Below the pieces are notes generated by a model. The model ran no database searches. It was given only the letters and a program-made list of their open reading frames with translations, and had not been told where the DNA came from. Shown in pieces: positions 2,267 to 35,286 of a DNA stretch of 60,254 nucleotides. The position numbers and the translations under genes are program-made. The stretch's first letter is position 1. Each line of letters starts with the position of its first letter. The stretch lies in the IMG/VR virus record IMGVR_UViG_3300045747_000144, positions 1-60,254 of that record; one strand, written 5' to 3'. Source of the DNA: a virus. Taxonomy: Duplodnaviria; Caudoviricetes.

Positions 2267-3520
2267 ATGAATGATGTTGTGACAAAGGAAGAGATGAAAA
2301 CAAGAGTTTTCAAAGTTCCTGTGGGTTACGTGCAATATCTAGAGGTCAAGATCGCTGAATTGAATAAGAAGGCGGTTAAACTCGGAACAACCGAGAATCG
2401 CATTGTGCTTGGTGATGTTGTCACTATCAAAAACAAAAAAGAGCACGCTAATTCACCTGATACATTTACTGAATATCAGTTGTTGACAGTTGAGGGTGCT
2501 GCTCCCATGTTATCAGGATGGTCATTTATGGGTAAATTAGAACCCCATGAAGCAGGAACCATTGTGAAATCAATTCCCGGCCAAACTATCCCTCACAAGT
2601 TTTTCACATCGAACCCAATGCATTGTGAGCATTGCAAAACTAATCGTTACCGTAAGGAAACCTTTGTAGTTAAAAAGGGTAGTGATTATCTTCAAGTTGG
2701 TCGTGCGTGTCTCAAAGATTTTATGGGTCATGCATCACCTGAAAAGTTTGCAGCATGGGCAGAGATTCTGCAAAACCTCGAAGCTACAATCAGTGATTAT
2801 GAAAATGATAACTGGGGTGGTTCTCGTGTAGATTGGGTAGCAAATACAGTTGAAACAGTTGCATCAGCATTTTCAGCAATTCAACGTGATGGTTTTGTGG
2901 GAACTAATTATGAAGGTAATAAGGAGCCCACAAAGTATACTATGTCAAAGCATTTTAATCCCCCAACAGGATTAGATGCAAAGTATCATACACCATTGGT
3001 CGTAACTGATTCTCATACAGCCAGTGCAAAGTTGTGCATTGTGTGGATTCAGGATAAAGCAAAATCAAATAATGATGAGTTTTGGCAGAATCTTAACAAG
3101 TTTGTTTCTGTGCAAAACAATACTCATAAGGCATTCGGTTATCTTGCAGCAGCAGTTATGATGTATGAAAAGGAACAAGGTAATATTGCAGTTAAAGCAA
3201 AGATAACAGACGGTATTGTTGATTCTGTAATTGCTCCCGAGGGAACTAAAGTTACATTAGATGTGGAAATCATCAGTGCACATAAGTATCAACGCCAGGC
3301 ATATCATTACAATGATTCTGGGGTGAGTCAGATTTTGACAATGAAAACAAAAGGTGGCAATCTTATCAAAATGTTCACCACAAACCTGGTAGTTAAGGTC
3401 GGTGATGTTGTTGGGTTATCTGGAAAATTGGGGCGGTGCGAGAAAGAATCATTTGACAAGTCACCATTTAAAGGGATCTTCATTACAATGATGGCACCCA
3501 GAGCAAGATTACTTGCATAA
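2267..3520 (+). CDS. Conserved phage hypothetical protein (CxxC motif, possible C-terminal OB-like domain)
   Basis: 417 aa; CEHCKTNRYR...QVGRACLKDF. Confidence 0.7.
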   Translation: MNDVVTKEEMKTRVFKVPVGYVQYLEVKIAELNKKAVKLGTTENRIVLGDVVTIKNKKEHANSPDTFTEYQLLTVEGAAPMLSGWSFMGKLEPHEAGTIVKSIPGQTIPHKFFTSNPMHCEHCKTNRYRKETFVVKKGSDYLQVGRACLKDFMGHASPEKFAAWAEILQNLEATISDYENDNWGGSRVDWVANTVETVASAFSAIQRDGFVGTNYEGNKEPTKYTMSKHFNPPTGLDAKYHTPLVVTDSHTASAKLCIVWIQDKAKSNNDEFWQNLNKFVSVQNNTHKAFGYLAAAVMMYEKEQGNIAVKAKITDGIVDSVIAPEGTKVTLDVEIISAHKYQRQAYHYNDSGVSQILTMKTKGGNLIKMFTTNLVVKVGDVVGLSGKLGRCEKESFDKSPFKGIFITMMAPRARLLA

Positions 3521-3568
3521 TAAGGTTAGTTGTGCAATAATTGATTTATACAATGATAGGAATTTATA

Positions 3569-4828
3569 ATGAGCATTTTGCGTATTTTGAATGAGTTGGC
3601 ATCGGATAATTCACGATTAGCCAAAGAGGCTATTCTGAAAAGAGAACAGAATAACAAACTGTTACAGCGAGTAATCAAGGCAGCGTTTGACCCATTCATT
3701 AACTATTATGTCTTGAATGCAGAACCCGTTTCAAGTGCAAGTTCGGACTTATCTCTCGATGATATGTTCGACATTCTTCGTCGATTGTCAACCCGTGAGA
3801 TTACAGGCAATAAGGCTCGGGCACTAATCTGCAATACCAAAACACAATTGTCAGATTCAGATGGTGAAGTATTCTACCGAATCTTGCAACATGATCTTCG
3901 CTGTGGTATTGCAACAGCAACAATCAATAAGATTTGGCCAGGCACCATTCCAGTGTTTGATGTATGTTTGGCGCACAAAGATACGTCAGGGATTAAGTAT
4001 CCTGCATACGCACAAATCAAATATGATGGCGGACGATGCCATTTACATTTCGATGGTGTAAAAGCAACCGCATGGTCTAGGAATGGTAAGCAGATTGAAT
4101 TACATGGTGCATTAGATAATGATGCCAAAACGATCATGTCTACAGGTGATACATGGGATGGTGAGATTGTTTTCCGCAAATCTAATGGTTCATTACATGA
4201 TCGCAAAACCAGTAATGGTTTGTTCAATAAGGGAGTTAAAAACTCCATATCAGAATCAGAAGCAGCATTCGCAACATTCTTTGTGTGGGATAATGTAGAT
4301 TTCACAGAAACTATTCCATACGATAAGCGCCTTGAATCTATGGGTGATGTATCAACAACGACAATTAGAATTGCGGGTACTATCATTGTAAAGAATGAAC
4401 AAGAGGGATTAGATTTTTATGCCAAATGTTTAAGTGAGGGTGAGGAAGGTGCCATTCTAAAGAATAAGACATTTAAATGGCAACCTAAACGGATTAAAGA
4501 TATTGGTAAGATGAAAGCAGAAGAAGAGGCTGATGTTCTAGTTACCGGATGGTTTGCAGGTAAACCAGGTACCAAATATGAAGATGGTTTGGGTGGATTA
4601 GAATACACCACATCAGATAAGGTTATTGAGGGTAATGTGGGTAGTGGGTTTTCAGATGATATTAGGTTCGCAGGTGATTACGATTCATGGGTGGGAAAGA
4701 TTATAACAATTCGATATAATCAACGCATCAAATCATCTACAGATAAGAAAGAATCATTATTCCTGGCAAGGTATATTGAAACACGGTTAGATAAGGATAT
4801 TGCAAATAGTTCGGACGAATTAAAATGA
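3569..4828 (+). CDS. 30: ATP-dependent DNA ligase (gp30)
   Basis: KYDGGR adenylation motif, DGEI, EGAILK, VGSGFSD; T4 gp30-like N-terminus (NSRLAKEAIL). Confidence 0.95.
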   Translation: MSILRILNELASDNSRLAKEAILKREQNNKLLQRVIKAAFDPFINYYVLNAEPVSSASSDLSLDDMFDILRRLSTREITGNKARALICNTKTQLSDSDGEVFYRILQHDLRCGIATATINKIWPGTIPVFDVCLAHKDTSGIKYPAYAQIKYDGGRCHLHFDGVKATAWSRNGKQIELHGALDNDAKTIMSTGDTWDGEIVFRKSNGSLHDRKTSNGLFNKGVKNSISESEAAFATFFVWDNVDFTETIPYDKRLESMGDVSTTTIRIAGTIIVKNEQEGLDFYAKCLSEGEEGAILKNKTFKWQPKRIKDIGKMKAEEEADVLVTGWFAGKPGTKYEDGLGGLEYTTSDKVIEGNVGSGFSDDIRFAGDYDSWVGKIITIRYNQRIKSSTDKKESLFLARYIETRLDKDIANSSDELK

Positions 4829-5130
4829 AGTGTAAACAGGGACAACTGGCATTCATTAATAAGTCGTTGAGGACATCTAATATAGGTAAGATAGTTACCT
4901 GCATTAGGCACATGGGGCACTATTCCATTGGTGATAGGATTGTACTCAATGGTGAGACATGGTTGGCATATGATACTTATGACCATTGGTTAATTGGTGG
5001 CAACATCGAGACACAATATGGTATGTCTAAGGAGGCATATATTATGGATTCTTGATTAACCCCTATTGATCCTGGTGTGTTAGATGAGGAAGATTCGCAT
5101 AGTTTAACCGATGAATTGGAGACTGCATAA
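4825..5130 (+). CDS. Hypothetical protein with in-frame TGA at 5053 (nonsense lesion or read-through)
   Basis: Frame continues past the TGA as LTPIDPG...ETA to a TAA that overlaps the next ATG (TAATG). Confidence 0.55.
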
Positions 5131-5345
5131 TGGAAGTTAGTATTAATGGATTTACAGAGAATCAGGCAAAGCATGCCGATATTATATGGGCAATAGAATC
5201 ACAAGAAGAAGTTCAAGTGTATCTAAATGCTCTAGATGGTATAGATTGGATTGATGCAAACATTGCACTCAATATGATTTGTGCAGAGGCAATGGATTCT
5301 GTGGATAATTTAGAAGATGCCTCTGAGTTATTGGCAAAGTATTGA
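5130..5345 (+). CDS. Acidic hypothetical protein
   Basis: Translationally coupled ORF with GGAG SD. Confidence 0.65.
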   Translation: MEVSINGFTENQAKHADIIWAIESQEEVQVYLNALDGIDWIDANIALNMICAEAMDSVDNLEDASELLAKY

Positions 5346-5357
5346 AAAGGAGAAAGT

Positions 5358-5612
5358 ATGAAACAGATTTTAGTCATTGCGTCTATTTTGTTATTGACCG
5401 CTTGTGGTAAAGTAGATAATTTTGTAAACGGTGTAAAATCAGCAACGGGTAACTTAGATCGAACAGTTACTCTGTATAATGAAACTGGTGGTGTAATTAA
5501 GTCATGGAAGACATCCAATACTGTTGAGTATGTGGGTCCAGTTGCTGGGTTTATTGATAAAGACGGGACTAATGTCCGTGTATCTGGCACATTCATTATT
5601 GAAGGTAAGTAA
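5358..5612 (+). CDS. Putative lipoprotein
   Basis: Signal peptide with lipobox LLTAC. Confidence 0.7.
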   Translation: MKQILVIASILLLTACGKVDNFVNGVKSATGNLDRTVTLYNETGGVIKSWKTSNTVEYVGPVAGFIDKDGTNVRVSGTFIIEGK

Positions 5613-5854
5613 TGGCATACGAAGATATTGTCGTCAAAGTTCAGGAAGAGGTCGATTACATTCTTCCTGCTATTTGTGTTAATGGTATGATGACTATCAT
5701 GTCTGATATTGGTGCAATTTATATCACCAAAGAGCAGGCAATGCAATTCTTTGATCTTGTTGAAAATTCAAAGTATATTGAACAGCAAATGATGATTAGG
5801 ACATTATCTAGGGCTGCTACGATGAATTGGGAAAAGACAGTGCCAATGCATTAA
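5612..5854 (+). CDS. Hypothetical protein
   Basis: TAATG-coupled ORF. Confidence 0.6.
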   Translation: MAYEDIVVKVQEEVDYILPAICVNGMMTIMSDIGAIYITKEQAMQFFDLVENSKYIEQQMMIRTLSRAATMNWEKTVPMH

Positions 5855-5907
5855 AAGCTAAGATTATCAATTTTATTAAAACGGTTAGTTAACTTAAAGA
5901 GGTATAT

Positions 5908-6747
5908 ATGGGATTTTTGTTTATGACGATTGTGGTAGTTCTTATTGTGAGTGCATCACTATGGGTTATGGTTAATAGGAAATTCGGTGTGATTTCACTT
6001 GGTGTGGGAACAGTATTGGCAATTTTATTGAATTCCCTTACTATTATTAGTGCAGGGCATATTGGTGTACAATCAACATTCGGTGAAGTTAATATGGTGC
6101 CCATTCAAGAGGGTATTCATCTAGTTAATCCAATCAGTGCAATTAAGAATGTAGATGTTCGACTTGCAACAGCAACATTAGCTGCAGCTAATGCAGGAAC
6201 TAAAGATTTGCAAGTTGTGCATACTGATATTGTAGTTAACTACCGATTGGATCCTATTAGAGTTCCTTTCATCCTAAAGGAGTTTGGTATTGACGTAGAT
6301 GCAAAGATCCTAGGTCCGTCAATGAATGAGGCATTTAAGTCAGTTACTGGGCATTACAATTCAGAGGAACTAATCACCAAACGTGATGAAGTATCAGCCT
6401 CTATTCTAGAGCATGTTAAGGAAAAGGTTGCCCCATATAGTATCACAATCAATTCAGTTAGTTTAGTTAATTTTGCATTCTCACCAGAGTATCAAAAGGC
6501 AATTGAGTCTAAGGTTATTGCAACCCAGGCTGCATTGAAAGCAGAGCAGGACTTGCGTCGTGTTGAAATCGAAGCAAAGTCACGCATTGCCCAAGCAAAG
6601 GGTGAGGCAGAGGCTATCTCTATACAAGCACAGGCTATTCAAAGCTCAGGTGGGGCGCAGTATGTACAGTTGCAGGCAATTGAGAAGTGGAACGGTGCAT
6701 TGCCCACAATGATGAGTGGTGCAGTTCCATTCGTGAATGTTAAGTAG
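5908..6747 (+). CDS. SPFH/prohibitin (band 7) membrane protein
   Basis: Two N-terminal TM segments; AGHIGV, EGIHLVNP, TKDLQ, ELITKR, AIESK, AKGEAEA, IEKWNG. Confidence 0.9.
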   Translation: MGFLFMTIVVVLIVSASLWVMVNRKFGVISLGVGTVLAILLNSLTIISAGHIGVQSTFGEVNMVPIQEGIHLVNPISAIKNVDVRLATATLAAANAGTKDLQVVHTDIVVNYRLDPIRVPFILKEFGIDVDAKILGPSMNEAFKSVTGHYNSEELITKRDEVSASILEHVKEKVAPYSITINSVSLVNFAFSPEYQKAIESKVIATQAALKAEQDLRRVEIEAKSRIAQAKGEAEAISIQAQAIQSSGGAQYVQLQAIEKWNGALPTMMSGAVPFVNVK

Positions 6748-7275: not shown

Positions 7276-7759
7276 CAGATACTTAACTAGAAAGTATGCC
7301 CCTTTGTATAAGGATAGGCATGCGAGTATGTCTCAAACTTGTATGTGTTGGGGATTCTCTTGTGGTGATGGGTGGTTTAATATCATCAATACTTTGAGTG
7401 CTTCCCTATGTAACGACTGGTTAAATGCAAAAGATGCATATGATCTTATCAAAGATAAAGTGGGTGAAGTTAAAAGTCAGTGGTCAAAAGAGATAGTCAC
7501 AACAGAGATGATTGAGGCTGCTAAACTCAAGATGGACACTGAATATGATTTAGTTCCAACTGCAGTACAGGTTAAGGAAAAGTTTGGTGGTCTAAGGTTC
7601 TATACTAATGGAGCCACAGATATTCAGGATGCTTATATTACCTTTGCAGAGATGATTAGTGTTAGAACTTGTGAAGTATGTGGTAAACCAGGTAAGAGAA
7701 CTTCAGATGGCTGGATTAGGACATTGTGCAAAGAGCACATGGTGGGCAATACTGATTGA
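7259..7759 (+). CDS. Conserved phage hypothetical protein with zinc ribbon
   Basis: CGDGW, QVKEKFGGLRFY, TCEVCGKPG...LC..H. Confidence 0.75.
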   Translation: MNRHYDRYLTRKYAPLYKDRHASMSQTCMCWGFSCGDGWFNIINTLSASLCNDWLNAKDAYDLIKDKVGEVKSQWSKEIVTTEMIEAAKLKMDTEYDLVPTAVQVKEKFGGLRFYTNGATDIQDAYITFAEMISVRTCEVCGKPGKRTSDGWIRTLCKEHMVGNTD

Positions 7760-7784
7760 CAATAATAGTGTTTTTACTTATACT
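7756..7784 (+). promoter_or_regulatory. Sigma70-type promoter for the DNA polymerase
   Basis: TTGACA-17 bp-TATACT. Confidence 0.65.
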
Positions 7785-7803
7785 GTAATTACACAATGAA
7801 GGA

Positions 7804-8805
7804 GTGATATTGAAATTTTATACTAGTTGCCTGCCTTGGGGGAATAATATCCTATATCGAGGGATTGAAAATGGACGACATGTTCAGATGAAAGTCCCTT
7901 TCGCACCCACACTGTTTCTTAAATCTAATGACAAGAAATCAGAATGGAAATCATTAGACGGTACTGCAGTTGAACCCATGAGATTCGCTGAGATTCGTGA
8001 AGCCAAAGATTTTATCAAAAGATATGATGGTATTCAGGGATTTGAAGTATATGGTATGAATCAATGGCAATATCAATATCTGGGTGATGAATTCCCAGGT
8101 GATATTGATTATGACCTATCTGCCATGCGTATATGGTCTCTCGATATTGAAACTTGCGTATCTCAAGGATTTCCTGATATTGCAACTGCATCCGAAGAGA
8201 TACTTCTAATCTCAATTCAAGATAAAGCATCAAAAGAATTGATTGTTTTTGGTTCTAGGTCATACGAGAAAACAGAATCAGACAATTTCACATACCGTCT
8301 ATTTAAAGACGAAACTACAATGCTCAAGGCATTTATTGATTATTGGCACGACAATTACCCAGATATTGTTACAGGTTGGAATGTAGATCAGTTTGACTTC
8401 CCTTATATCATCAATAGGGTGATGAGGGTATTGGATGAAGATTGGGTAAAGAGATTGTCACCATGGGGTTTCATTAATGAAAGAAAGATAGAGATTCGTG
8501 GTAAAGATGTGCAAACCTATGACATCATGGGAATTGTTATTCTTGACTATATGGAACTCTATAAGAAGTTTACTCAGGGAACCAAGGAGAGTTATTCCCT
8601 TAAGTTTATATCAGCTGAGGAACTTCCCGCAGAGTCACAAAAACATGAATTATGGGGGTCGTTTAAGGAAAGTTATAATGGGGAATTCAGAGCATCCGCA
8701 GAGATATTTGATAAAAATAAAAATGATGAAATAGTCAAAGAATCATTTGAACGTGAAAAGATAATAAAGGAAATGGAACGTCGTGGTATTAAGTGGAATT
8801 TTTAG
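7804..8805 (+). CDS. 43: DNA polymerase B gp43, N-terminal part (N domain plus most of the 3'-5' exonuclease)
   Basis: ExoI LDIET, ExoII TGWNVDQFDFPY, LDYMELYKKF, ESYSL; ends in a 42 aa tail with no expected gp43 motifs. Confidence 0.92.
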   Translation: MILKFYTSCLPWGNNILYRGIENGRHVQMKVPFAPTLFLKSNDKKSEWKSLDGTAVEPMRFAEIREAKDFIKRYDGIQGFEVYGMNQWQYQYLGDEFPGDIDYDLSAMRIWSLDIETCVSQGFPDIATASEEILLISIQDKASKELIVFGSRSYEKTESDNFTYRLFKDETTMLKAFIDYWHDNYPDIVTGWNVDQFDFPYIINRVMRVLDEDWVKRLSPWGFINERKIEIRGKDVQTYDIMGIVILDYMELYKKFTQGTKESYSLKFISAEELPAESQKHELWGSFKESYNGEFRASAEIFDKNKNDEIVKESFEREKIIKEMERRGIKWNF

Positions 8806-9522
8806 GAACTAATTTCGACCGCATACCAACGTATAAAACACCTTTGTTCATTTTGAACTCTGCAGATGTGACCAGTTCATATGTGTTTTCTATTATGTTA
8901 TAAACGGTCATTGTACCTTTTTTGGATAAACTTATTGCTTTTCTGACGGACTCACGCTTACAATGGTGCGCGTCACCCTTAGACAACATAGTTAATTGAC
9001 GTTTTCTGATGACTTCTTTAGATTTTAGAATAGTAGAAGAAATTAGTTTTCCCTGGTCTGATAATTTTTGTTTATGTGTATCCGATCGGGTCAAACTTAG
9101 TGCTGATACTGACATTTTTTGTTTGGTCTTGTCACTATGCGTTCTTGTACCAACAGATAATTTTCTGGCAACTGAACACATTTTTCTGCCATAATCATAA
9201 AGATGAGAAGTTACTCTATATTGTTTTTCTCTATGATGATTTTTATTTGACATTTGATAAAAAGCATAGTTTGCTTTCATCTTATATAGTTTGTCTTCAA
9301 ACATTTTGGTTAGAAGTAGGTGACATAAGAAATGTTCTTTGGCTGTAAGTTTAACAATATTGTTTTTGTCTGTTTCACCACCCATGTGGAACGATTTAGG
9401 TAATATGTGGTGTAATTCACCGTACCCGTCTTTATATTTTGAATTTTGACATATATTTAAGTACCACTTATAATACTTGTTGTGGGTAGAGATGGAATCT
9501 AGTATAGTTTTGTATTTTGCAT
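8789..9522 (-). mobile_element. Free-standing HNH homing endonuclease between the gp43 halves; probable start ATG is out of frame
   Basis: Frame upstream of the tracked ATG reads KYYKWYLNIC...GYGELHHILPKSFHMGGETDKNNIVKLTAKEHFLCHLLL; NUMOD3-like HSDKTKQKMS repeats; ATG at 9522 is one base out of frame. Confidence 0.85.
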
Positions 9523-9547
9523 GATTTATTAAAATTGTGTTATTGAT

Positions 9548-9555
9548 TATTTATA
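9548..9555 (-). promoter_or_regulatory. T4-type late promoter for the antisense HNH gene
   Basis: TATAAATA on the minus strand, just upstream of the HNH frame. Confidence 0.7.
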
Positions 9556-9562
9556 AAGGTCT

Positions 9563-11272
9563 ATGATGGAATATACACATCTTAGTGATGATGAGTTAAA
9601 AATAGTTTTTCATAAACAAAATGAGAAGGTTAAGGTGTTGGTGTGGCAAACCTTTGTGCAATATAATGCCCGAGATACAGAAGTTGTTGATAAGATGGAC
9701 GATAAGTTGAAGTTCATTGAATTGGTAATGACCATTGCTTATTTGTCAAAGTGCAATTTCAAAGACGTTTATGGTCAAGTTAAAGTATGGGATGTGTTCA
9801 TTTACAATTACCTATTGCATAAGAAGATTGCTGTTCCACAGGCAAAGGGTCATGTAGGTGGGTCTATTGAGGGTGCTTACGTTAAGGCACCATTAATGGG
9901 TATGAAAGGATGGGTTGTGTCATTCGATTATGCATCACTGTATCCTACAATCATGCGGCAATGGAATATCTCACCTGAGATGTTAATGGATAAGGTGCCT
10001 ATGGGAGTTGCCAATATGGTTGACCCCACAGATGCGGAAGAATTATTGTTTAAGTATGCAAAAGAACAAAATTGTACTATTGCAGCTAATGGTACAATGT
10101 TCAAACGGGATAGACAAGGTATTCTACCTGAAGTAGTTGAAGTTATGGTTAATGGACGAAAGTCTATTAAGAAGCATATGTTGGAAATGGAGAAGAAGTA
10201 TCAAGAGACGCATGATGAATCATTAGTTCCTAAGATTGCTGCAGCCAACGGAAAACAACTTGCCTATAAAATTATGGCTAATGCATTGTACGGTGCTGCC
10301 GGTAATGCAGGGTTTAGGTATTATGATTTGAGAATCGCTGAGGCAATTACATTAACAGGTCAAGCATGCGATAAGATGGTTGAGAAGCATGTTAATGTGT
10401 TTATGAATAAGGTTCTCAAAACAGAAGGTAAAGATTATGTATTATACATGGATACTGACTCTTGTTACCTAGATTGCTCTGGTGTGGTTGATTCAGTTTG
10501 TCCAGATAAGACAGATGAAGAAAAGATGAAATTCCTCATTAAGTTCTCTGAGGAGGTGCAGAATAGGCCTATTAAAGGTGCAGATGATATTATGTTTGAT
10601 AGATGCAACTGTTTCCAGATGCATATGAATATGAAGCATGAGGGTATATTCTCTAGGGGATTCTGGACAAGTAAGAAACGATATGCATTGAAAATGATGT
10701 ATTCTGAGGGTGTCACTTATGATCCTCCCAAGATTAAAGTTATGGGATTGGATATCGTCAAGAGTTCTACCCCACAGGTTGTTCGTAAAATGTTGAAAGA
10801 GACACTGCCTGTTATGTTTGATTCTGATGAGGTTACATTGCGTGCTTATGTTACAAAGTGTAGAGAAAAGTATTTCACATTGACACCAGAAGATATTGCA
10901 TTCCCAAGGGGAGTTAATAACCTAATTAAGTACACAGACAAACAATCTGGTAATTATATCAAGGGTACACCAATGCATGTTAGGTCTGCTATTCTATACA
11001 ATAGGCACACAAAACCAATTCGTGAACAGTATCAAGAGATTGGTCATGGGGATAAGATTAAGTTCATTGCATTAATGGTGCCCAATCCAATTCGAGAGGA
11101 TGTTATTGGGTTTCTCAGTTCAGGTAAGTTTCCTAGGGAATTGAATCTAGAGAAATATGTGGATAAAGATATGATGTGGGAAAAATCATTCTTAGTTCCT
11201 TTGCGTGGAATTACTGATGCAATTGGGTGGCAAGTGGAAGAGAAATCGTCATTGGAGTCGTTCTTTGGATAA
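9563..11272 (+). CDS. 43: DNA polymerase B gp43, C-terminal part (ExoIII plus polymerase domain)
   Basis: YNARD (ExoIII), SFDYASLYPTI, KIMANALYG, YMDTDS, KKRYAL, clamp-binding SLESFFG; own SD AAGGT. Confidence 0.95.
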   Translation: MMEYTHLSDDELKIVFHKQNEKVKVLVWQTFVQYNARDTEVVDKMDDKLKFIELVMTIAYLSKCNFKDVYGQVKVWDVFIYNYLLHKKIAVPQAKGHVGGSIEGAYVKAPLMGMKGWVVSFDYASLYPTIMRQWNISPEMLMDKVPMGVANMVDPTDAEELLFKYAKEQNCTIAANGTMFKRDRQGILPEVVEVMVNGRKSIKKHMLEMEKKYQETHDESLVPKIAAANGKQLAYKIMANALYGAAGNAGFRYYDLRIAEAITLTGQACDKMVEKHVNVFMNKVLKTEGKDYVLYMDTDSCYLDCSGVVDSVCPDKTDEEKMKFLIKFSEEVQNRPIKGADDIMFDRCNCFQMHMNMKHEGIFSRGFWTSKKRYALKMMYSEGVTYDPPKIKVMGLDIVKSSTPQVVRKMLKETLPVMFDSDEVTLRAYVTKCREKYFTLTPEDIAFPRGVNNLIKYTDKQSGNYIKGTPMHVRSAILYNRHTKPIREQYQEIGHGDKIKFIALMVPNPIREDVIGFLSSGKFPRELNLEKYVDKDMMWEKSFLVPLRGITDAIGWQVEEKSSLESFFG

Positions 11273-11282
11273 GGTAATATCA

Positions 11283-11645
11283 ATGAGTTACCTACTCTCT
11301 TTAATGGAGAGGCGTAATGGTAAGACATCTGAACTGATTGACACATTAGTTTCACTATTGTATAATGAATCTAATGCTAGATATGCTGTGGTTGTTCCCA
11401 CAAGGGTAGTCGCAGAGATGATAATGGGTGTGGTTTATACTGATGCATTGGTATTAGGTGCAACTTTAACTCATTATACCAATAAGGTATTTAGGTCGAA
11501 AAACGGCATTGAAATTCGGTTCTATTTGGATACGGAGCTAGATTGCCTAAGAGGAATAACCTTTAATGACATATTCTTTGATGACCCAATAAGTTTTATT
11601 AAACCAGAGGTTATGCGCAATTTAATACATAGGATTAAACAATGA
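11283..11645 (+). CDS. Small P-loop/terminase-ATPase-like protein
   Basis: RRNGKTS ... VVVPT ... LRG...IFFDD. Confidence 0.5.
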   Translation: MSYLLSLMERRNGKTSELIDTLVSLLYNESNARYAVVVPTRVVAEMIMGVVYTDALVLGATLTHYTNKVFRSKNGIEIRFYLDTELDCLRGITFNDIFFDDPISFIKPEVMRNLIHRIKQ

Positions 11646-30449: not shown

Positions 30450-31506
30450 ACTCGACTGTGGATATGATCAACATGACATATCCACAGCAACGGAGAACTT
30501 CTATACTAAAGTGGGAGATTCATGGGTTCTCATTCATAATTCACCATCAGTGGTTCTTGGAACTCACCCAGAAACTAAAAAATTCTTTGTTGCATCTAAA
30601 TCTGCTTTCAACAAAGACCCAAAAATCAATTACACCGATGAAGATATTGACCGCAACCATGGTCATGCTCCTGGTCTAGCTAAGAAACTAAAATCACTTC
30701 TAAAACACGGACACAAGCTGGGTATTAAAGGTGTTGCGCAGGGTGATATGCTTTATGATGAATCAGATAAGCACGAACACGAAGGCAAGATTCATTTTAA
30801 ACCAAACACTATCAAGTATTCTATTGATAAGAAGCATCCTGAGGGCAAGAAGGTAGCTAGATCAAAAATCGGTGTTGCGTTGCATACAGAGTATGATGAA
30901 AAGGGTAATGCTGTACTAAACCCACACATTAAAGTTAAAGAACATCCAGATGTTTATAATATGCCAGTGGCTGTGCATAAAGATAAGATGAAATTTGATC
31001 ATGCTAAACTGAAACATCATGCTTCTGAAATTGGTAAGAAGATGAAGGAAATTCCTAAAGAGGGATGGGATGCAGTATCACACCCTGCAGCGGCAGAGCA
31101 TGTCAAGACTTACATCAACCAAAAAGTCCGTAAAGGTGAAACGGATTATAATGTAGATGAACTCCAGAAGCACATTCATGGTAAGTATCAGAAAGAAATT
31201 GATAAAGTAAAATCTGATAAAGCGAAGAGTGCTAAGGCCCAAGAAAGAGATACCATATCAGGTCATGTTAATATCCATGCTCACCATTACAAGAAAGCAT
31301 TTGAAATTCAACATCACATTAACGCGGCAAAGCACCATGTTATTGATAGTTTAAACCACAACCAGACATTTGATCATCACTATGAAAATGGTGAAAAGGC
31401 ATCACCAGAAGGTTATGTAAGCATTGGTCACCACGGTCCAGTTAAATTTGTCAATCGTGGTGATTTTAGTCGTGCCAATTTTGCGATGTCAGCAAACAGG
31501 AAATAA
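30427..31506 (+). CDS. Split intein C-half (38 aa) fused to C-extein of the ligase-like protein
   Basis: MKVTKV...HDIST.TENF...VLIHN|SPS; extein KFFVASKSAFNK.PKIN, QGD, FKPNTI.Y, EGYV, VKFVNR..FS.ANF. Confidence 0.9.
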   Translation: MKVTKVIKLDCGYDQHDISTATENFYTKVGDSWVLIHNSPSVVLGTHPETKKFFVASKSAFNKDPKINYTDEDIDRNHGHAPGLAKKLKSLLKHGHKLGIKGVAQGDMLYDESDKHEHEGKIHFKPNTIKYSIDKKHPEGKKVARSKIGVALHTEYDEKGNAVLNPHIKVKEHPDVYNMPVAVHKDKMKFDHAKLKHHASEIGKKMKEIPKEGWDAVSHPAAAEHVKTYINQKVRKGETDYNVDELQKHIHGKYQKEIDKVKSDKAKSAKAQERDTISGHVNIHAHHYKKAFEIQHHINAAKHHVIDSLNHNQTFDHHYENGEKASPEGYVSIGHHGPVKFVNRGDFSRANFAMSANRK

Positions 31507-31507
31507 T

Positions 31508-32104
31508 ATGCTATCATTTAAAGAATTCATCTCAGAGTCGGAAAAAGAGAAACATTTTGCAATGACATACATGCGGGCTAATCCGCCGACTGTGGGTCAT
31601 TCTAAGGTAATTGCTGCAGTGGCAAAACATCCCGGAACACATAGGATTGTTGTTTCGCATTCTCAGGATGCAAAGAAGAACCCTTTGACTGGGGAGGAGA
31701 AGGCCACGTTTTTGCGGGTAGCACACCCAGAACACCATGACAATATACAAGCAGCAAGTACTGAGTCGCCCACCATACTTCACCACTTGGCAAAGTTGCA
31801 TTCTGAAGGTCACACCCACGGAAAGGTGATTGTTGGAGAGGATAGAATTAAGGAAATGAGTTCTCTGGTTAGCAAATATAATGGCGTCAAGGCAGGTCAT
31901 GGATATTACAACTTTAAGAAAGTAGATGTGGAATCTGCTGGGCACCGTGATCCTGATGCAGAAGGTGTTGAAGGCATGAGCGCAACCAAGATGAGAGATG
32001 CTGCTAAGACCGGTGACACCGAGAAGTTCAAATCTGGGTTACATCCAAACCTACACAAACATGCCACAGAAATCATGAGTAAAATTAAAGACAGATTAAA
32101 ATGA
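31508..32104 (+). CDS. Cytidyltransferase-like (HIGH superfamily) nucleotidyltransferase
   Basis: RANPPTVGH, SHSQD.KKNPL, VGEDR, SAG.RDPDAEGVEGMSATKMR; MLSFKEFISE N-terminus. Confidence 0.85.
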   Translation: MLSFKEFISESEKEKHFAMTYMRANPPTVGHSKVIAAVAKHPGTHRIVVSHSQDAKKNPLTGEEKATFLRVAHPEHHDNIQAASTESPTILHHLAKLHSEGHTHGKVIVGEDRIKEMSSLVSKYNGVKAGHGYYNFKKVDVESAGHRDPDAEGVEGMSATKMRDAAKTGDTEKFKSGLHPNLHKHATEIMSKIKDRLK

Positions 32105-32631
32105 TAACATTCAAAGAGTTTATATCTTCGACAACCGTTCGAAGATATACAGGTAAGAATGGGTTCTACGCATGGTTAAATGTTGCTCAAGACTCTTTAG
32201 AGGATATTCTAAAATATTTTTCTGATATAAAATTCACAACTGAGCAACTAGTTGACCTACATGTAACAGTCATGTATAGCAACACTCCCATTCCAGTATC
32301 TTGTGTGAACGAGAATAAAAAGATGCCGGATGCTACATTTATTCAATCGGTGCGGGCAAAAGAACTTGAATTTTGGGGTGGGCATTCCGGAAAGGGGTTC
32401 CTTGTTCTTAAATTGGATGCCAGTTATATCAAGCATTTGCACGAAAAATGGGTCAAATGTGGTGCAAAACCGACATTTCCTGAGTACACACCACATATGA
32501 CAATGATCACACCTTGCGATGATACATCAACATTGAAGAAGTTAATTGAGAAGTACAACGAGAAGTTAAATAAAGAACCGTTGCAGATTACATTGATACA
32601 AGAACAATGTGAAGATGTGAACGAAGATTAA
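32101..32631 (+). CDS. acb1: 2H phosphoesterase, T4 57B/Acb1-like (anti-CBASS candidate)
   Basis: Two HxT motifs (LHVTVMYS, YTPHMTM), LVLKL, GAKPTFPEY; MITFKEFIS N-terminus. Confidence 0.75.
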   Translation: MITFKEFISSTTVRRYTGKNGFYAWLNVAQDSLEDILKYFSDIKFTTEQLVDLHVTVMYSNTPIPVSCVNENKKMPDATFIQSVRAKELEFWGGHSGKGFLVLKLDASYIKHLHEKWVKCGAKPTFPEYTPHMTMITPCDDTSTLKKLIEKYNEKLNKEPLQITLIQEQCEDVNED

Positions 32632-32660
32632 TAAATACAATAAACACATAGGAATTAGCC

Positions 32661-34448
32661 ATGACCATTAAATCTCTCATCTCTGCAGACTTGTTGAATA
32701 CAGTTGAATCATACAATGAAACATTGCCTCAGCCGGAAGAACCTAATACTGATTATTCATACATTAAAACCGAGGGGTTGAATACATTAGCTGCATGGGG
32801 CGATAAAGAAGTAAATGAAGCAACTGGTCTAAGCCCAGCGCTACTATCAAGATATAAAAAAGGTGCGGGTGAATATGCATCATCTGCCGATAGTTTATCT
32901 AGCACATTCCACAAAATCGGTGACCATGAAACAGCCAAAAAATTTACAGACAAGTCCAACAAGAGATTTAGTGGTATTCTAAAAGCAACAAGAAAGCAAT
33001 TTGATAACGATAGTAACGGTATCAAAGAAGGTTTAGCAGATGACTTTTTATCTATGGCTAAGGGCATGAAGAATCCAAACGGTTCCCCGCGGTTCGCAAA
33101 TGCTAGAATTGTGACGCCAGAAGAGAAGATTAAAGAACGCCAAGCATTGGACGCTAAACGTGCTGAAGAGTTAAAAAATAACCCCCCAAAACCTAGAGTG
33201 TATGCAGATGATGAAAAAGATGACAATTCCAGAGGATATGGCAAGGGCCGTTATATGGGTGATTCTGTTGAATACGCAGGATTGGATAGTATAATTGAAG
33301 GTAGAATGGTTCCCACGCACAACGCATCAGGCAAACCAAATCCAAACCACCCTGCATACTCTAAACACAAAGCTGCTTATGATTCAGAACAAGCTGAAGT
33401 TGAGGCATCAACATTTTCACTCAAAAATCAAGATGCACGCAACAAAGCCGCCAAAAAACCAACAGAGAATCCAGTCAAGATGTCTCATATTGATGATGCT
33501 ATTGGTTCATCATATCCAGATGTAGAACCATATGATCATCTATCAAGGCAGTTTCCAGAATTACATAAACAGAATAAGTTGTCAGATATGGCAGACAAAG
33601 CAATACGTGCAAATACAAAACACAAGTCATTCTCACATTATACTGACGATATGTATAAGCAATTTAAAGCTGACTCTGATCACGACGAGAAAATGATGGG
33701 TGAAGACACAGTCCTAGATGAACAATCCGCACAAGAATTCATGGCTAATGCAATGAATAGCATTGATCCTCAACACAGGTCTGCAGCGAGAAAGACATAC
33801 CGCGATGCCAGAAACCGGGGAATGACACACGCATCAGCATTGACAAATATGTACAATAAGCATAGAAAGGTAAATGAATCTGTATCACAATTAGATGAAG
33901 TTCGCATGCCGCTGCAAGGTCATCCTTATCACGACAAAACAGATGACCAACTTAAGTATATTATTAAGGATGCAGGAGAGGCAGCTAGAGCACAAAAGGG
34001 TATGTCCTCAGAGGGAAAGTATTTAGACCAAGTTAATGATGCCACAACTGTATTGTATCATAGAAAAAAACAACAAGTTAAAGAAGCATTCCAGGCAGTT
34101 ATGCCACAACCTCAACGTGGTCCAACACAAGTAGAGATGGACAAAGCCCAAGCTCATGTCAAGAAGGCACACCCAGGAATGAAGTTAAATGGTGTGGCTA
34201 TTGGAATGGATGGCAAGGTTAATGTAAAGGCAGTTAAAACAGCAAGTTCAGTGGTCGAAGAATCTGAACTGACAGAACTAGACACTTCAACATACAAAGA
34301 ATATTTGCAAGGAAGAAAACAGTCGGGCAAACCAAACTCCATCCACAAGGCAGTTAAACAGGCTCTTGGCGTCAGAATTGCAAAAGAAAAACTCCAAGCT
34401 AAAGAGGCCAAGGCAAAAGCTGATTCAATGGGCAAAGTTTATCAATAA
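32661..34448 (+). CDS. Putative internal head polyprotein
   Basis: Late promoter at 32630; many (L/I/V)xE sites; charged, low-complexity blocks. Confidence 0.6.
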   Translation: MTIKSLISADLLNTVESYNETLPQPEEPNTDYSYIKTEGLNTLAAWGDKEVNEATGLSPALLSRYKKGAGEYASSADSLSSTFHKIGDHETAKKFTDKSNKRFSGILKATRKQFDNDSNGIKEGLADDFLSMAKGMKNPNGSPRFANARIVTPEEKIKERQALDAKRAEELKNNPPKPRVYADDEKDDNSRGYGKGRYMGDSVEYAGLDSIIEGRMVPTHNASGKPNPNHPAYSKHKAAYDSEQAEVEASTFSLKNQDARNKAAKKPTENPVKMSHIDDAIGSSYPDVEPYDHLSRQFPELHKQNKLSDMADKAIRANTKHKSFSHYTDDMYKQFKADSDHDEKMMGEDTVLDEQSAQEFMANAMNSIDPQHRSAARKTYRDARNRGMTHASALTNMYNKHRKVNESVSQLDEVRMPLQGHPYHDKTDDQLKYIIKDAGEAARAQKGMSSEGKYLDQVNDATTVLYHRKKQQVKEAFQAVMPQPQRGPTQVEMDKAQAHVKKAHPGMKLNGVAIGMDGKVNVKAVKTASSVVEESELTELDTSTYKEYLQGRKQSGKPNSIHKAVKQALGVRIAKEKLQAKEAKAKADSMGKVYQ

Positions 34449-34488
34449 TATTTCCTGATAAATATATCACAAAACATTGATGGGCACC

Positions 34489-35286
34489 ATGAAGAAATTT
34501 ACACAACTATTGAACGAAGTCAAAACTGCTCCTGAGCAGCTTAATGGGGCAACTGCCCTGCGAGAATCTTACGTTAACGGTGATATATTTCAAATTGGTG
34601 CGCTTGTCAAAACCAACAAAGGTATTGCTGAAATTATAAACCGTGGCCCTAATTATGTAACATTAGTTAAAGAGGGTGCAATATTCAAACGGTGGATAAC
34701 AGACATTTCAGAGACAGATTCCCAGTCTACCAAACAATCCAAAATATACAAAGAGTCATTTGTAGTTAATGGATATAAAACGGTCAACTTCTCAAAACAA
34801 TTAGCAGAAAAATTCAATGAGGTTGCCAAAGTGCACCCAGACAAATTTGCACTTTTCACCTGCGCAGTATGCTGTGATAAATTACTTGGTGCGTCTGCAG
34901 AAGAATTAGTAGAGAACTTCGACAAGTTTAGAATTGAATTTGATAGGGCAAGTAAATATCTATCAAAATTTGATATAGTGGTTGAGGAAATGGGCGCTAT
35001 AGAAGACAAGCTACTAGAATATGCTCTATTTGAAGGTGTTAAATTTTCAGCCACAAACAAACACAAAGTGGCCACCATTATTTCTGGGGCTGTTGGTCAC
35101 AAGTCAACAAGTAGAGACCCAACAGATATCATTCACGGTTCAATAGATCATGTTAAGAAGAACAGATACTCTGAAGAGCAATGGAAAATATTAGGCAAGA
35201 TGCTAAATAAAGCAACTGAGGCTGGTATTAAATGGGACAAGGCCAGGTTACACGCAATCACACAACAATTTATGGGGTTAAAATAA
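34489..35286 (+). CDS. Putative internal protein; resembles the C-terminal domain of T4-like phage cytidyltransferases
   Basis: MKKFTQLLNE; LRESYVNGDIFQIG...EIINRGPNYV...KRWITD. Confidence 0.6.
   Translation: MKKFTQLLNEVKTAPEQLNGATALRESYVNGDIFQIGALVKTNKGIAEIINRGPNYVTLVKEGAIFKRWITDISETDSQSTKQSKIYKESFVVNGYKTVNFSKQLAEKFNEVAKVHPDKFALFTCAVCCDKLLGASAEELVENFDKFRIEFDRASKYLSKFDIVVEEMGAIEDKLLEYALFEGVKFSATNKHKVATIISGAVGHKSTSRDPTDIIHGSIDHVKKNRYSEEQWKILGKMLNKATEAGIKWDKARLHAITQQFMGLK

Follow-up and report, generated by a model that had tools for sequence, protein, structure and literature searches.

A T4-like gp43 DNA polymerase gene split between ExoII and ExoIII by an insertion that encodes candidate reassembly tails

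The IMG/VR contig IMGVR_UViG_3300045747_000144, analysed over its whole length of 60,254 bases (the window) and estimated to hold ~27% of a viral genome, carries gp43, the family-B DNA polymerase (PolB) gene of T4-like phages, as two open reading frames (ORFs) on the forward strand. Part A (7804-8805, +) encodes 333 amino acids (aa) from a GTG start, which is backed by a conserved N-terminus, the alignment beginning at residue 3-5. Part B (9563-11272, +) encodes 569 aa. The two ORFs lie 757 bp apart and stand in place of the usual single polypeptide of ~830-900 aa. Pfam assigns part A to the PolB exonuclease family PF03104 (E 1.5e-25) and part B to PF00136 (E 9.7e-33), and on phrog_262 the two parts cover positions 8-306 and 302-852. 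That gp43 is present here as two ORFs with an insert between them is confirmed.

The position of the break was determined by comparison with 80 related viral loci. In the nearest seven (L002-L008; 53% identity to A and 46% to B) the gene is unbroken, and the residues equivalent to A294 and B28 adjoin in frame; when 46 distinct unsplit homologs are aligned with MAFFT, no residue proves to be gained or lost there. Since A294 and B28 abut in the unsplit relatives, residues A295-333 (a 39 aa tail) and B1-27 (a 27 aa head) are extra. The core of part A (residues 1-294; 7804..8685, +), as delimited by Pfam, phrog_262 and alignment, consists of the N-terminal domain with exonuclease motifs ExoI and ExoII, and the core of part B (residues 28-569; 9644..11272, +) holds ExoIII, the palm, fingers and thumb, polymerase motifs A, B and C, and the stop codon. 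Invariant columns include D114, E116, N193 and D198 in part A, and Y34, D38, D122, Y127, K236, N240, Y243, G244 and D297-T298-D299 in part B. We take D114 and E116 to belong to ExoI, N193 and D198 to ExoII, and Y34 and D38 to ExoIII, the remaining assignments to motifs likewise being our own presumption. All six gp43 motifs are present across A and B together, and the RB69 and T4 structures were matched. In the RB69 gp43 alignment, B28 corresponds to residue 317, Y34 and D38 of B to residues 323 and 327, and A281 to residue 305. The break falls at profile position ~294, not in the fingers at the fingertip position of ~485, and by alignment it separates ExoII from ExoIII within the exonuclease domain. 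With ExoI and ExoII on A and ExoIII on B, the proofreading site must, to judge by the positions of the motifs, be built from two chains.

An original prediction, made from the letters of this DNA, had described gp43 as two genes with ExoI and ExoII on the first and ExoIII on the second, and both this and the composite exonuclease site that it proposed are borne out by the ORFs, the Pfam matches, the invariant columns and the motif positions. Its 27 aa head is retained; its tail of 42 aa, which counts from ...KESY, shortens to 39 aa by homology. Its statement that known gp43 splits break in the fingers agrees with the published record (PMC3061061).

The inserted cassette measures 958 bp (8686..9643), is missing in unsplit relatives, and is delimited by the junction alignment. 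Its G+C content, 0.30-0.31 (9000-9749), is lower than the 0.36-0.41 of the flanks. It is placed six residues before the ExoIII tyrosine. Its left end encodes the C-terminal tail of A and a stop codon (8686..8805, +), with a distal helix at residues 309-326 and the ending motif E-M-x-R-R-G-I. Its right end encodes the acidic N-terminal head of B (9563..9643, +), with the motif L-S-D-D-E-L, which is predicted to be an N-terminal extension of the ExoIII helix. A perfect sigma-70 consensus promoter, TTGACA-17-TATAAT (9446..9474, +), lies inside the cassette, 89 nt before the ATG of B. Two perfect sites occur in the 60 kb, against 0.17 expected, and at least two occurred in 0 of 100 shuffles. The Shine-Dalgarno-like AAAGG (9555..9559, +) precedes two ATGs of B, at 9563 and 9566, of which the source gene call uses the second (P0121, 568 aa). 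Ahead of part A, a sigma-70-like promoter, TTGACA-17-TATACT (7756..7784, +), matches the consensus at 11 of 12 positions and is proposed from that match only. The second perfect promoter (11338-11366, +) stands directly after part B, ahead of the next genes.

The gap between A and B is filled by an antisense frame for an HNH homing endonuclease (8789-9550, -; phrog_655, E 1e-34), in agreement with the original prediction, and the 3' end of this frame overlaps the last codons of A by 17 nt. Upstream of the HNH motif the frame has no in-frame ATG, GTG or TTG, the first such codon, at 9385, coming only past the motif's His-His. The likely ATG (9522-9520), beside a run of A, is shifted by 1 nt from the HNH frame, and a 7-codon stub read from its region closes at TAG (9480-9556, -). 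The HNH relative in L002 begins M-Y-K-S-I-L, and the window has Y-K-T-I-L two codons after the out-of-frame ATG. X2 and X3, contigs of two further studies (by record, from wetland and riverine metagenomes), have 0 differences from the window over 9523-9674, and X2 additionally matches 9377-9544; depth is low, and X2 has no cover at 8268-8969, which leaves the tail junction without independent cover. Since X2 and X3 have the same letters, the HNH frameshift is probably not a one-off assembly error. The reading frame suggests that the endonuclease is apparently decaying. Just upstream of the HNH frame is TATAAATA (9548..9555, -), which we take to be the T4 late-promoter consensus. It was rejected as a promoter signal, there being no enrichment in the window (4 matches against 5.9 expected).

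The split architecture was found on two further contigs. In L116, A is 327 aa and B is 572 aa, and the gap is just 54 bp, without an endonuclease gene. In L084, an antisense GIY-YIG gene fills the gap, and its 3' end overlaps the end of A as the HNH frame does in the window. The tails and heads of all three align, and the same tail/head pair accompanies three fillings: an antisense HNH gene, an antisense GIY-YIG gene and a bare 54-bp gap. A Shine-Dalgarno sequence also precedes the ATG of B in L116 and L084 (GGAG and AGGAG). The agreement with X2 and X3 and the architecture of L116 and L084 together indicate that the split is not an assembly oddity. It is very improbable that gp43 is simply broken and non-functional here, with replication left to another polymerase or to the host. 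The incomplete genome and the decaying endonuclease speak for such a reading, but both frames run unbroken through their 333 and 569 codons, all catalytic motifs are invariant, the two-ORF form is kept in divergent phages, and the gp43 of phage 25, split at the fingertip, co-purifies and is active (PMC2988022).

A divided gene might also be rejoined by splicing into one polypeptide, through a group I intron whose ORF is, unusually, antisense, or through a degenerate split intein. Gene 43 introns are described in the T4-like phages 25 and JSE (PMC2993671), and metagenomic fractured genes have split inteins around free-standing endonucleases (PMC2677866). Here, Rfam searches at E<=10 found no intron family in window positions 7600-11500, L116 or L084, a result that a divergent intron could escape, and Pfam at E<=0.01 found no intein or Hint family in A or B, which matched polB families alone; the absence of intron and intein signatures noted in the original prediction was thus upheld. 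The lack of an Rfam match extends even to L116, where there is no endonuclease gene to disrupt an intron fold. The endonuclease ORF of the window is antisense, and neither the ribozyme core nor the sense-strand ORF of a group I intron was found. To our knowledge, 39 and 27 aa together are far under the size of any intein. B furthermore has its own promoter, Shine-Dalgarno sequence and ATG, and polymerases with a fused in-frame form of the insert, described below, translate it. We give splicing scarcely any credence.

The origin of the tail and head sequences was examined with hidden Markov models (HMMs) of the unsplit homologs. Against the post-junction HMM, the score of the window tail was reached by 1947 of 3000 shuffles, and against the pre-junction HMM that of the window head was reached by 1481 of 3000. 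With a full-length profile, 1473 of 2000 and 414 of 2000 shuffles reached the scores of tail and head, and among six tails and three heads the best result was 199 of 2000. An overlapping duplication of polymerase sequence, an idea prompted by tblastn alignments that carried the tail on into the ExoIII region and the head back into the sequence before the junction, was rejected because the HMM scores are no better than those of shuffles; the run-on is alignment over-extension. By these comparisons, neither the tail nor the head is copied from the polymerase. They differ in charge over part of their length: the distal 20 aa of the tail have an isoelectric point (pI) of 9.7-11.6 in five of six sequences, and the net charge over head residues 1-14 is -3 to -7 in three of three. 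The window itself has net charges of 0 for the whole tail and -1 for the whole head, with a distal tail pI of 9.7 and -3 for the first 14 aa of the head, and the contrast is sharper in L116 and L084. A search with residues 1-45 of B as query matched only the window's own protein.

To place the tail in a wider set of proteins, relatives of A were collected in a search limited to proteins of 183-583 aa, which shuts out unsplit forms; it gave A-like fragments, 323-338 aa long, that align over 98-99% of the query, including the tail. A tail profile of 46 positions was then compared with 1.84 billion representatives at E<=0.001. There were 21 matches, 17 of them polB N-terminal fragments or pieces with the tail at the very end, and these 17 representatives span clusters with <50% identity. 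Among B-like proteins, searched for at lengths of 220-700 aa, ten B fragments of the exonuclease site with heads were recovered. The Arg-Arg-Gly codons of the tail vary by locus (CGT CGT GGT, AGA CGT GGT and AGA CGC GGA), and such synonymous changes indicate that it is the peptide that is kept and not the DNA. Two more of the 21 matches, P0135 and P0139, are polymerases unsplit at the exonuclease site that contain a shortened, fused, in-frame tail and head, with six residues bridging the proximal tail and the distal head. Both also carry a large extra insertion in the N-terminal region and end at the fingertip with an R-G motif, so that a resealed and an open cassette would stand in one gene. 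The last two matches are unrelated proteins that carry the short motif. P0130 (675 aa) consists of nine ~70-aa repeats with a tail-like ...RRELEKRGVDV..., and its Pfam matches look like repeat artefacts. The tail plus head may resemble SAP/HeH domains, although Pfam found no such family in P0130 or P0141, both of which carry the motif in one chain.

A second tail type (...EFEKW.LLKNKLKK), another basic helix, occurs in six A fragments cut ~10 residues earlier. No type-2 locus split at the exonuclease site was recovered in viral scans with P0066, P0089 and P0180 or in a metagenome scan with P0089; the P0180 viral scan returned 66 unsplit genes, 10 that were cut, 3 split elsewhere and 1 without a C-terminal part. 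A locus search with P0007 confirmed no relative.

Most relatives of A of near length are fragments of ~486-500 aa that end at the fingertip, the published kind of split, and the two kinds of fragment were compared at their ends. In an architecture classification of 356 loci, 244 relatives are unsplit. The tail motif was defined as [EQD][ILMV]xx[KR]G[ILMV] within the last 14 residues and the head motif as S[DN]x[DE]L. The tail motif is present in 53 of 74 fingertip-split A fragments and 18 of 34 exonuclease-site fragments (the 34 taking in cut genes and the second tail type), in 0 of 14 palm-site fragments and in 2 of 1958 other ORF ends of the same loci; 12 of 162 unsplit polymerases have it anywhere in their sequence. 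The head motif was found in 6 of 10 exonuclease-site and 7 of 18 fingertip B fragments, and in 0 of 1449 other N-termini. With an HMM of fingertip tails, 18 of 20 exonuclease-site tails had scores that were matched by <=3 of 500 shuffles of the respective tail, and the window tail scored 12.2 bits (0 of 500 shuffles). The corresponding fingertip-head HMM scored all ten exonuclease-site heads at a level reached by <=8 of 500 shuffles, and the window head at 13.6 bits (0 of 500).

Among the fingertip loci, L011 has a 317-aa same-strand ORF (2768-3718, +) between the halves of gp43, its ATG overlapping the end of the A fragment, which by eye looks PurM-like (purine synthesis) rather than like an endonuclease. 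A third split site, after polymerase motif A (profile position ~415), is seen in the A fragments of L034, L224 and L278, with tails ending ...ELEK.L...; in L224 a same-strand GIY-YIG-like ORF (5291-5977, +) lies in the gap.

The motifs may have been kept for a reason unconnected with reassembly, either as cassette signals (a ribosome-binding site, an endonuclease recognition site or a regulatory site) or to contact another replisome partner. At the fingertip loci L011 and L035, the Arg-Gly codons (GGAGGGG and AGGGGA) lie directly 5' of the ATG of the next gene and double as its Shine-Dalgarno sequence. Homing endonucleases often recognise conserved coding DNA. The window, L116 and L084, however, have no same-strand gene directly after the tail and still keep the peptide, their tail codons (CGT CGT GGT) are not Shine-Dalgarno-like, and the head motif lies well within the coding frame of B. 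We regard such other reasons as improbable.

A phylogenetic tree was constructed from 286 columns of 83 N-terminal cores, 12 of them split and 71 unsplit, the latter kept from 191 after removal of 90% near-copies. It was made by a quick IQ-TREE search with LG+G4 and has some long branches, and gain cannot be told from loss on it. Five of the six type-1 splits, including the window, are in one clade (Shimodaira-Hasegawa-like approximate likelihood ratio test support 99), which also holds the unsplit L002 as sister of P0003 (98); the sixth, P0033, is elsewhere, as sister of the unsplit L085 (96). Type 1 requires three changes of state, and the six type-2 splits require six, two of them being 89-90% identical to unsplit relatives. 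This scatter of split forms among unsplit relatives would suggest that cassettes have been gained or lost often. A separate kind of break may be present in L281 (1079-2182), where a 368-aa polB N-terminal fragment ends at profile position 328 with a hydrophobic, unrelated ending near the edge of the contig; a frameshift or a further insertion immediately past ExoIII may account for it.

AlphaFold2 models part A with a tail helix at residues 309-326 (predicted local distance difference test, pLDDT, ~60) and part B with a helix that starts at residue 9 and runs into the ExoIII helix (pLDDT 67-77). Prediction of a complex was carried out with the tail (49 residues) and head (36 residues) alone, and gave a median score of 0.42, where the highest of three controls had 0.00, with contact agreement of at least 89% between runs and partner pLDDT of at least 74. 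In calibration, 116 of 157 solved complexes attained the mark applied, as did 2 of 215 mismatched pairs. The prediction is compatible with binding of tail and head, weakly so, and is not proof of it. The adjacent exit and re-entry residues of the polymerase chain, the six-residue bridge of the fused forms, the helices and the charges all fit an antiparallel two-helix hairpin with its tip open.

Taken together, these observations make it probable that gp43 is made as two polypeptides by a 958-bp mobile cassette at the position equivalent to RB69 residues ~316/317, and that the tail and head aid reassembly. The cassette would extend A by 39 codons and then stop it, and would give B a promoter, a ribosome-binding site, an ATG and 27 in-frame leading codons. 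A and B would reassemble without a covalent link, ExoI and ExoII of A and ExoIII of B forming one proofreading site. The distal basic helix of the tail (...E-[LIM]-x-x-[KR]-G-[ILV]) would pack antiparallel on the acidic helix of the head (...S-[DN]-x-[DE]-L...), so that tail and head would approximate a helical hairpin whose tip is cut open at the endonuclease gene, and this packing would contribute binding energy where the chain is interrupted, in the manner of the insertion-derived tails of Aeh1 NrdA. The endonuclease may move the whole cassette or colonise an already split gene, and its decay and loss would leave the tail, a short gap and the head. An adaptor role of tail and head is in our judgement plausible. 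The original prediction had named an unsplit homolog with the same insertion as evidence against it; a shortened, fused version does occur in P0135 and P0139, and our reading is that it would be the same hairpin covalently closed and not a refutation.

Several points weigh against this account. AlphaFold2 confidence is low at A277-333 (pLDDT 40-64), and the tail-head score is graded weak, values of <=0.60 having been seen in just 18 solved complexes and in both of the mismatched pairs that passed. The common motifs are short (~7 and ~5 residues) and could be convergent, and the Shine-Dalgarno role of the Arg-Gly codons in L011 and L035 may partly explain their conservation. The HNH gene looks inactive, which bears on the mobility of the window's copy of the cassette, and a second polymerase may be encoded in the part of the genome beyond the ~27% present. 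The tails of Aeh1 NrdA are not needed for formation of its a/b heterodimer (PMC3045599), and a Pfu PolB that was engineered with a break at the fingertip works as the wild type does although no tails were added (PMC3061061).

These last two systems, with the low-confidence tail model and the weak tail-head prediction, are also the case for supposing that the native polymerase interface alone assembles the halves and that the tail and head are passive scars of insertion. A neutral scar, however, should not keep its motifs across clusters of <50% identity, as the 17 tail-bearing representatives do; the motifs survive synonymous codon changes and recur at two split sites when judged against composition-matched shuffles, and the basic/acidic polarity is kept. 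We consider passive scars unlikely, and favour a contribution of the tail and head to reassembly.

The closest known system is nrdA of phage Aeh1, which is split by mobE and whose insertion-derived basic and acidic tails, of pI 10.4 and 3.8, are essential (PMC3045599). In both cases the gene of an essential enzyme is cut by a free-standing HNH-family endonuclease, active-site residues are on both ORFs, and split-specific, insertion-derived tails accompany the break without RNA or protein splicing. The C-terminal tail of Aeh1 NrdA is basic and the N-terminal one acidic; in the window such a contrast is confined to the distal tail and the first 14 aa of the head. The window shares with that system a break at a point that is continuous in relatives, a free-standing endonuclease in the gap and tails without homology to the unsplit protein. 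It differs in that the exonuclease domain of a polB is divided and the endonuclease is on the opposite strand, and in being known from sequence alone. Furthermore, the Aeh1 tails are described as unique, whereas the gp43 tail and head form a family in many phages, with varied or no endonuclease and at two sites. In T4 topoisomerase gp39/gp60, a homing-endonuclease insertion (mobA) likewise left tail-like extensions of opposite charge, in a different enzyme (PMC3045599).

Splits of gp43 into gp43A and gp43B at the fingertip are known from the T4-like phages 133, 44RR, 31, 25 and 65 (PMC2988022, PMC3061061, PMC2677866). Their spacers are untranslated, with a seg gene in phage 25 and spacer alone in 44RR (PMC2988022), and they share with the window the protein family and an untranslated spacer between two genes, with or without an endonuclease. 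Unlike these breaks at ~485, the break of the window at ~294 falls after ExoII but before ExoIII and cuts the proofreading site in two. In the phage 133 record, the end of gp43A is basic and the start of gp43B acidic, without the R-G-[ILV] ending. The fractured genes with split inteins, from environmental phage-like DNA, are similarly in two pieces with an endonuclease gene between them (PMC2677866), but the window has no Hint match and its extensions (39 and 27 aa) are far too short. The engineered Pfu PolB is likewise a family-B polymerase that tolerates a break and reassembles from two chains, and differs in that the break is artificial, at the fingertip, and without added tails (Hansen et al. 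2011, PMC3061061). In the literature searched, which did not extend to Petrov et al. 2006 and 2010 or to supplements, no ExoII/ExoIII split and no conserved gp43 tails are reported. The split is best filed as kin of the endonuclease-fragmented genes of Aeh1 NrdA and gp43A/gp43B, at a new and more invasive site. What is new, as far as the literature searched goes, is that the tail and head are a recognisable motif family across lineages, endonuclease types and split sites.

The interpretation in the original prediction is therefore partly supported. Its proposal that the tails form a dimerisation adaptor draws weak support from the predicted complex. Its suggestion of a portable device holds for different polymerase lineages, for HNH, GIY-YIG or no endonuclease, and for the end motifs shared with the fingertip, but spread to other genes was not seen, since the tail profile matched polB fragments plus two unrelated proteins. 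The idea of splicing-free rescue by tails is not new: Crona et al. 2011 had already proposed insertion-derived tails as a general way to neutralise fragmentation, and one that is hard to find by similarity (PMC3045599).

A broader possibility, which we hold tentatively and would rather doubt when all its parts are taken jointly, is that T4-like phages host gene-splitting cassettes with ends that encode a reusable two-helix zipper, in which a basic tail ending E-L-x-x-R-G-L pairs with an acidic head that has S-D-x-E-L. The cassette would be a landing pad for free-standing endonucleases from unrelated families. It would have been born at the hairpin-shaped fingertip and moved with its flanks to the exonuclease site, the split hairpin serving as the adaptor, and later the tip would have been resealed, as in the fused forms, or the endonuclease lost.

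The split divides a catalytic site of an essential replicase, at a site outside the seven natural PolB splits reviewed in PMC3061061, none of which, as listed there, lies inside the exonuclease domain. The prediction of Crona et al. becomes testable, because the tail motif pair is present in dozens of protein clusters and natural resealed forms exist. As a small tag of natural origin, the tail/head pair may prove useful for putting split proteins back together. When aquatic viromes are annotated, polB fragments of 320-340 aa and 560-575 aa would count as two halves of one polymerase, not as truncated genes.

The gene order of the window is that of T4-like cyanophages, namely regA, Hsp20, ligase, gp43, UvsX, a gp41-type helicase, head, tail and terminase, and megablast against GenBank phages gave no close DNA match to the window. 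By PHROG names only, the replication module has auxiliary genes on either side, one a QueE-like radical SAM gene and several others cytidyltransferase-like (1274-2173 and 31424-35283). In L084, a UvsX-like ORF (4534-5795) has an odd C-terminal stretch, and the HNH-like ORF after it leaves the contig; this may represent an intein or another endonuclease insertion.

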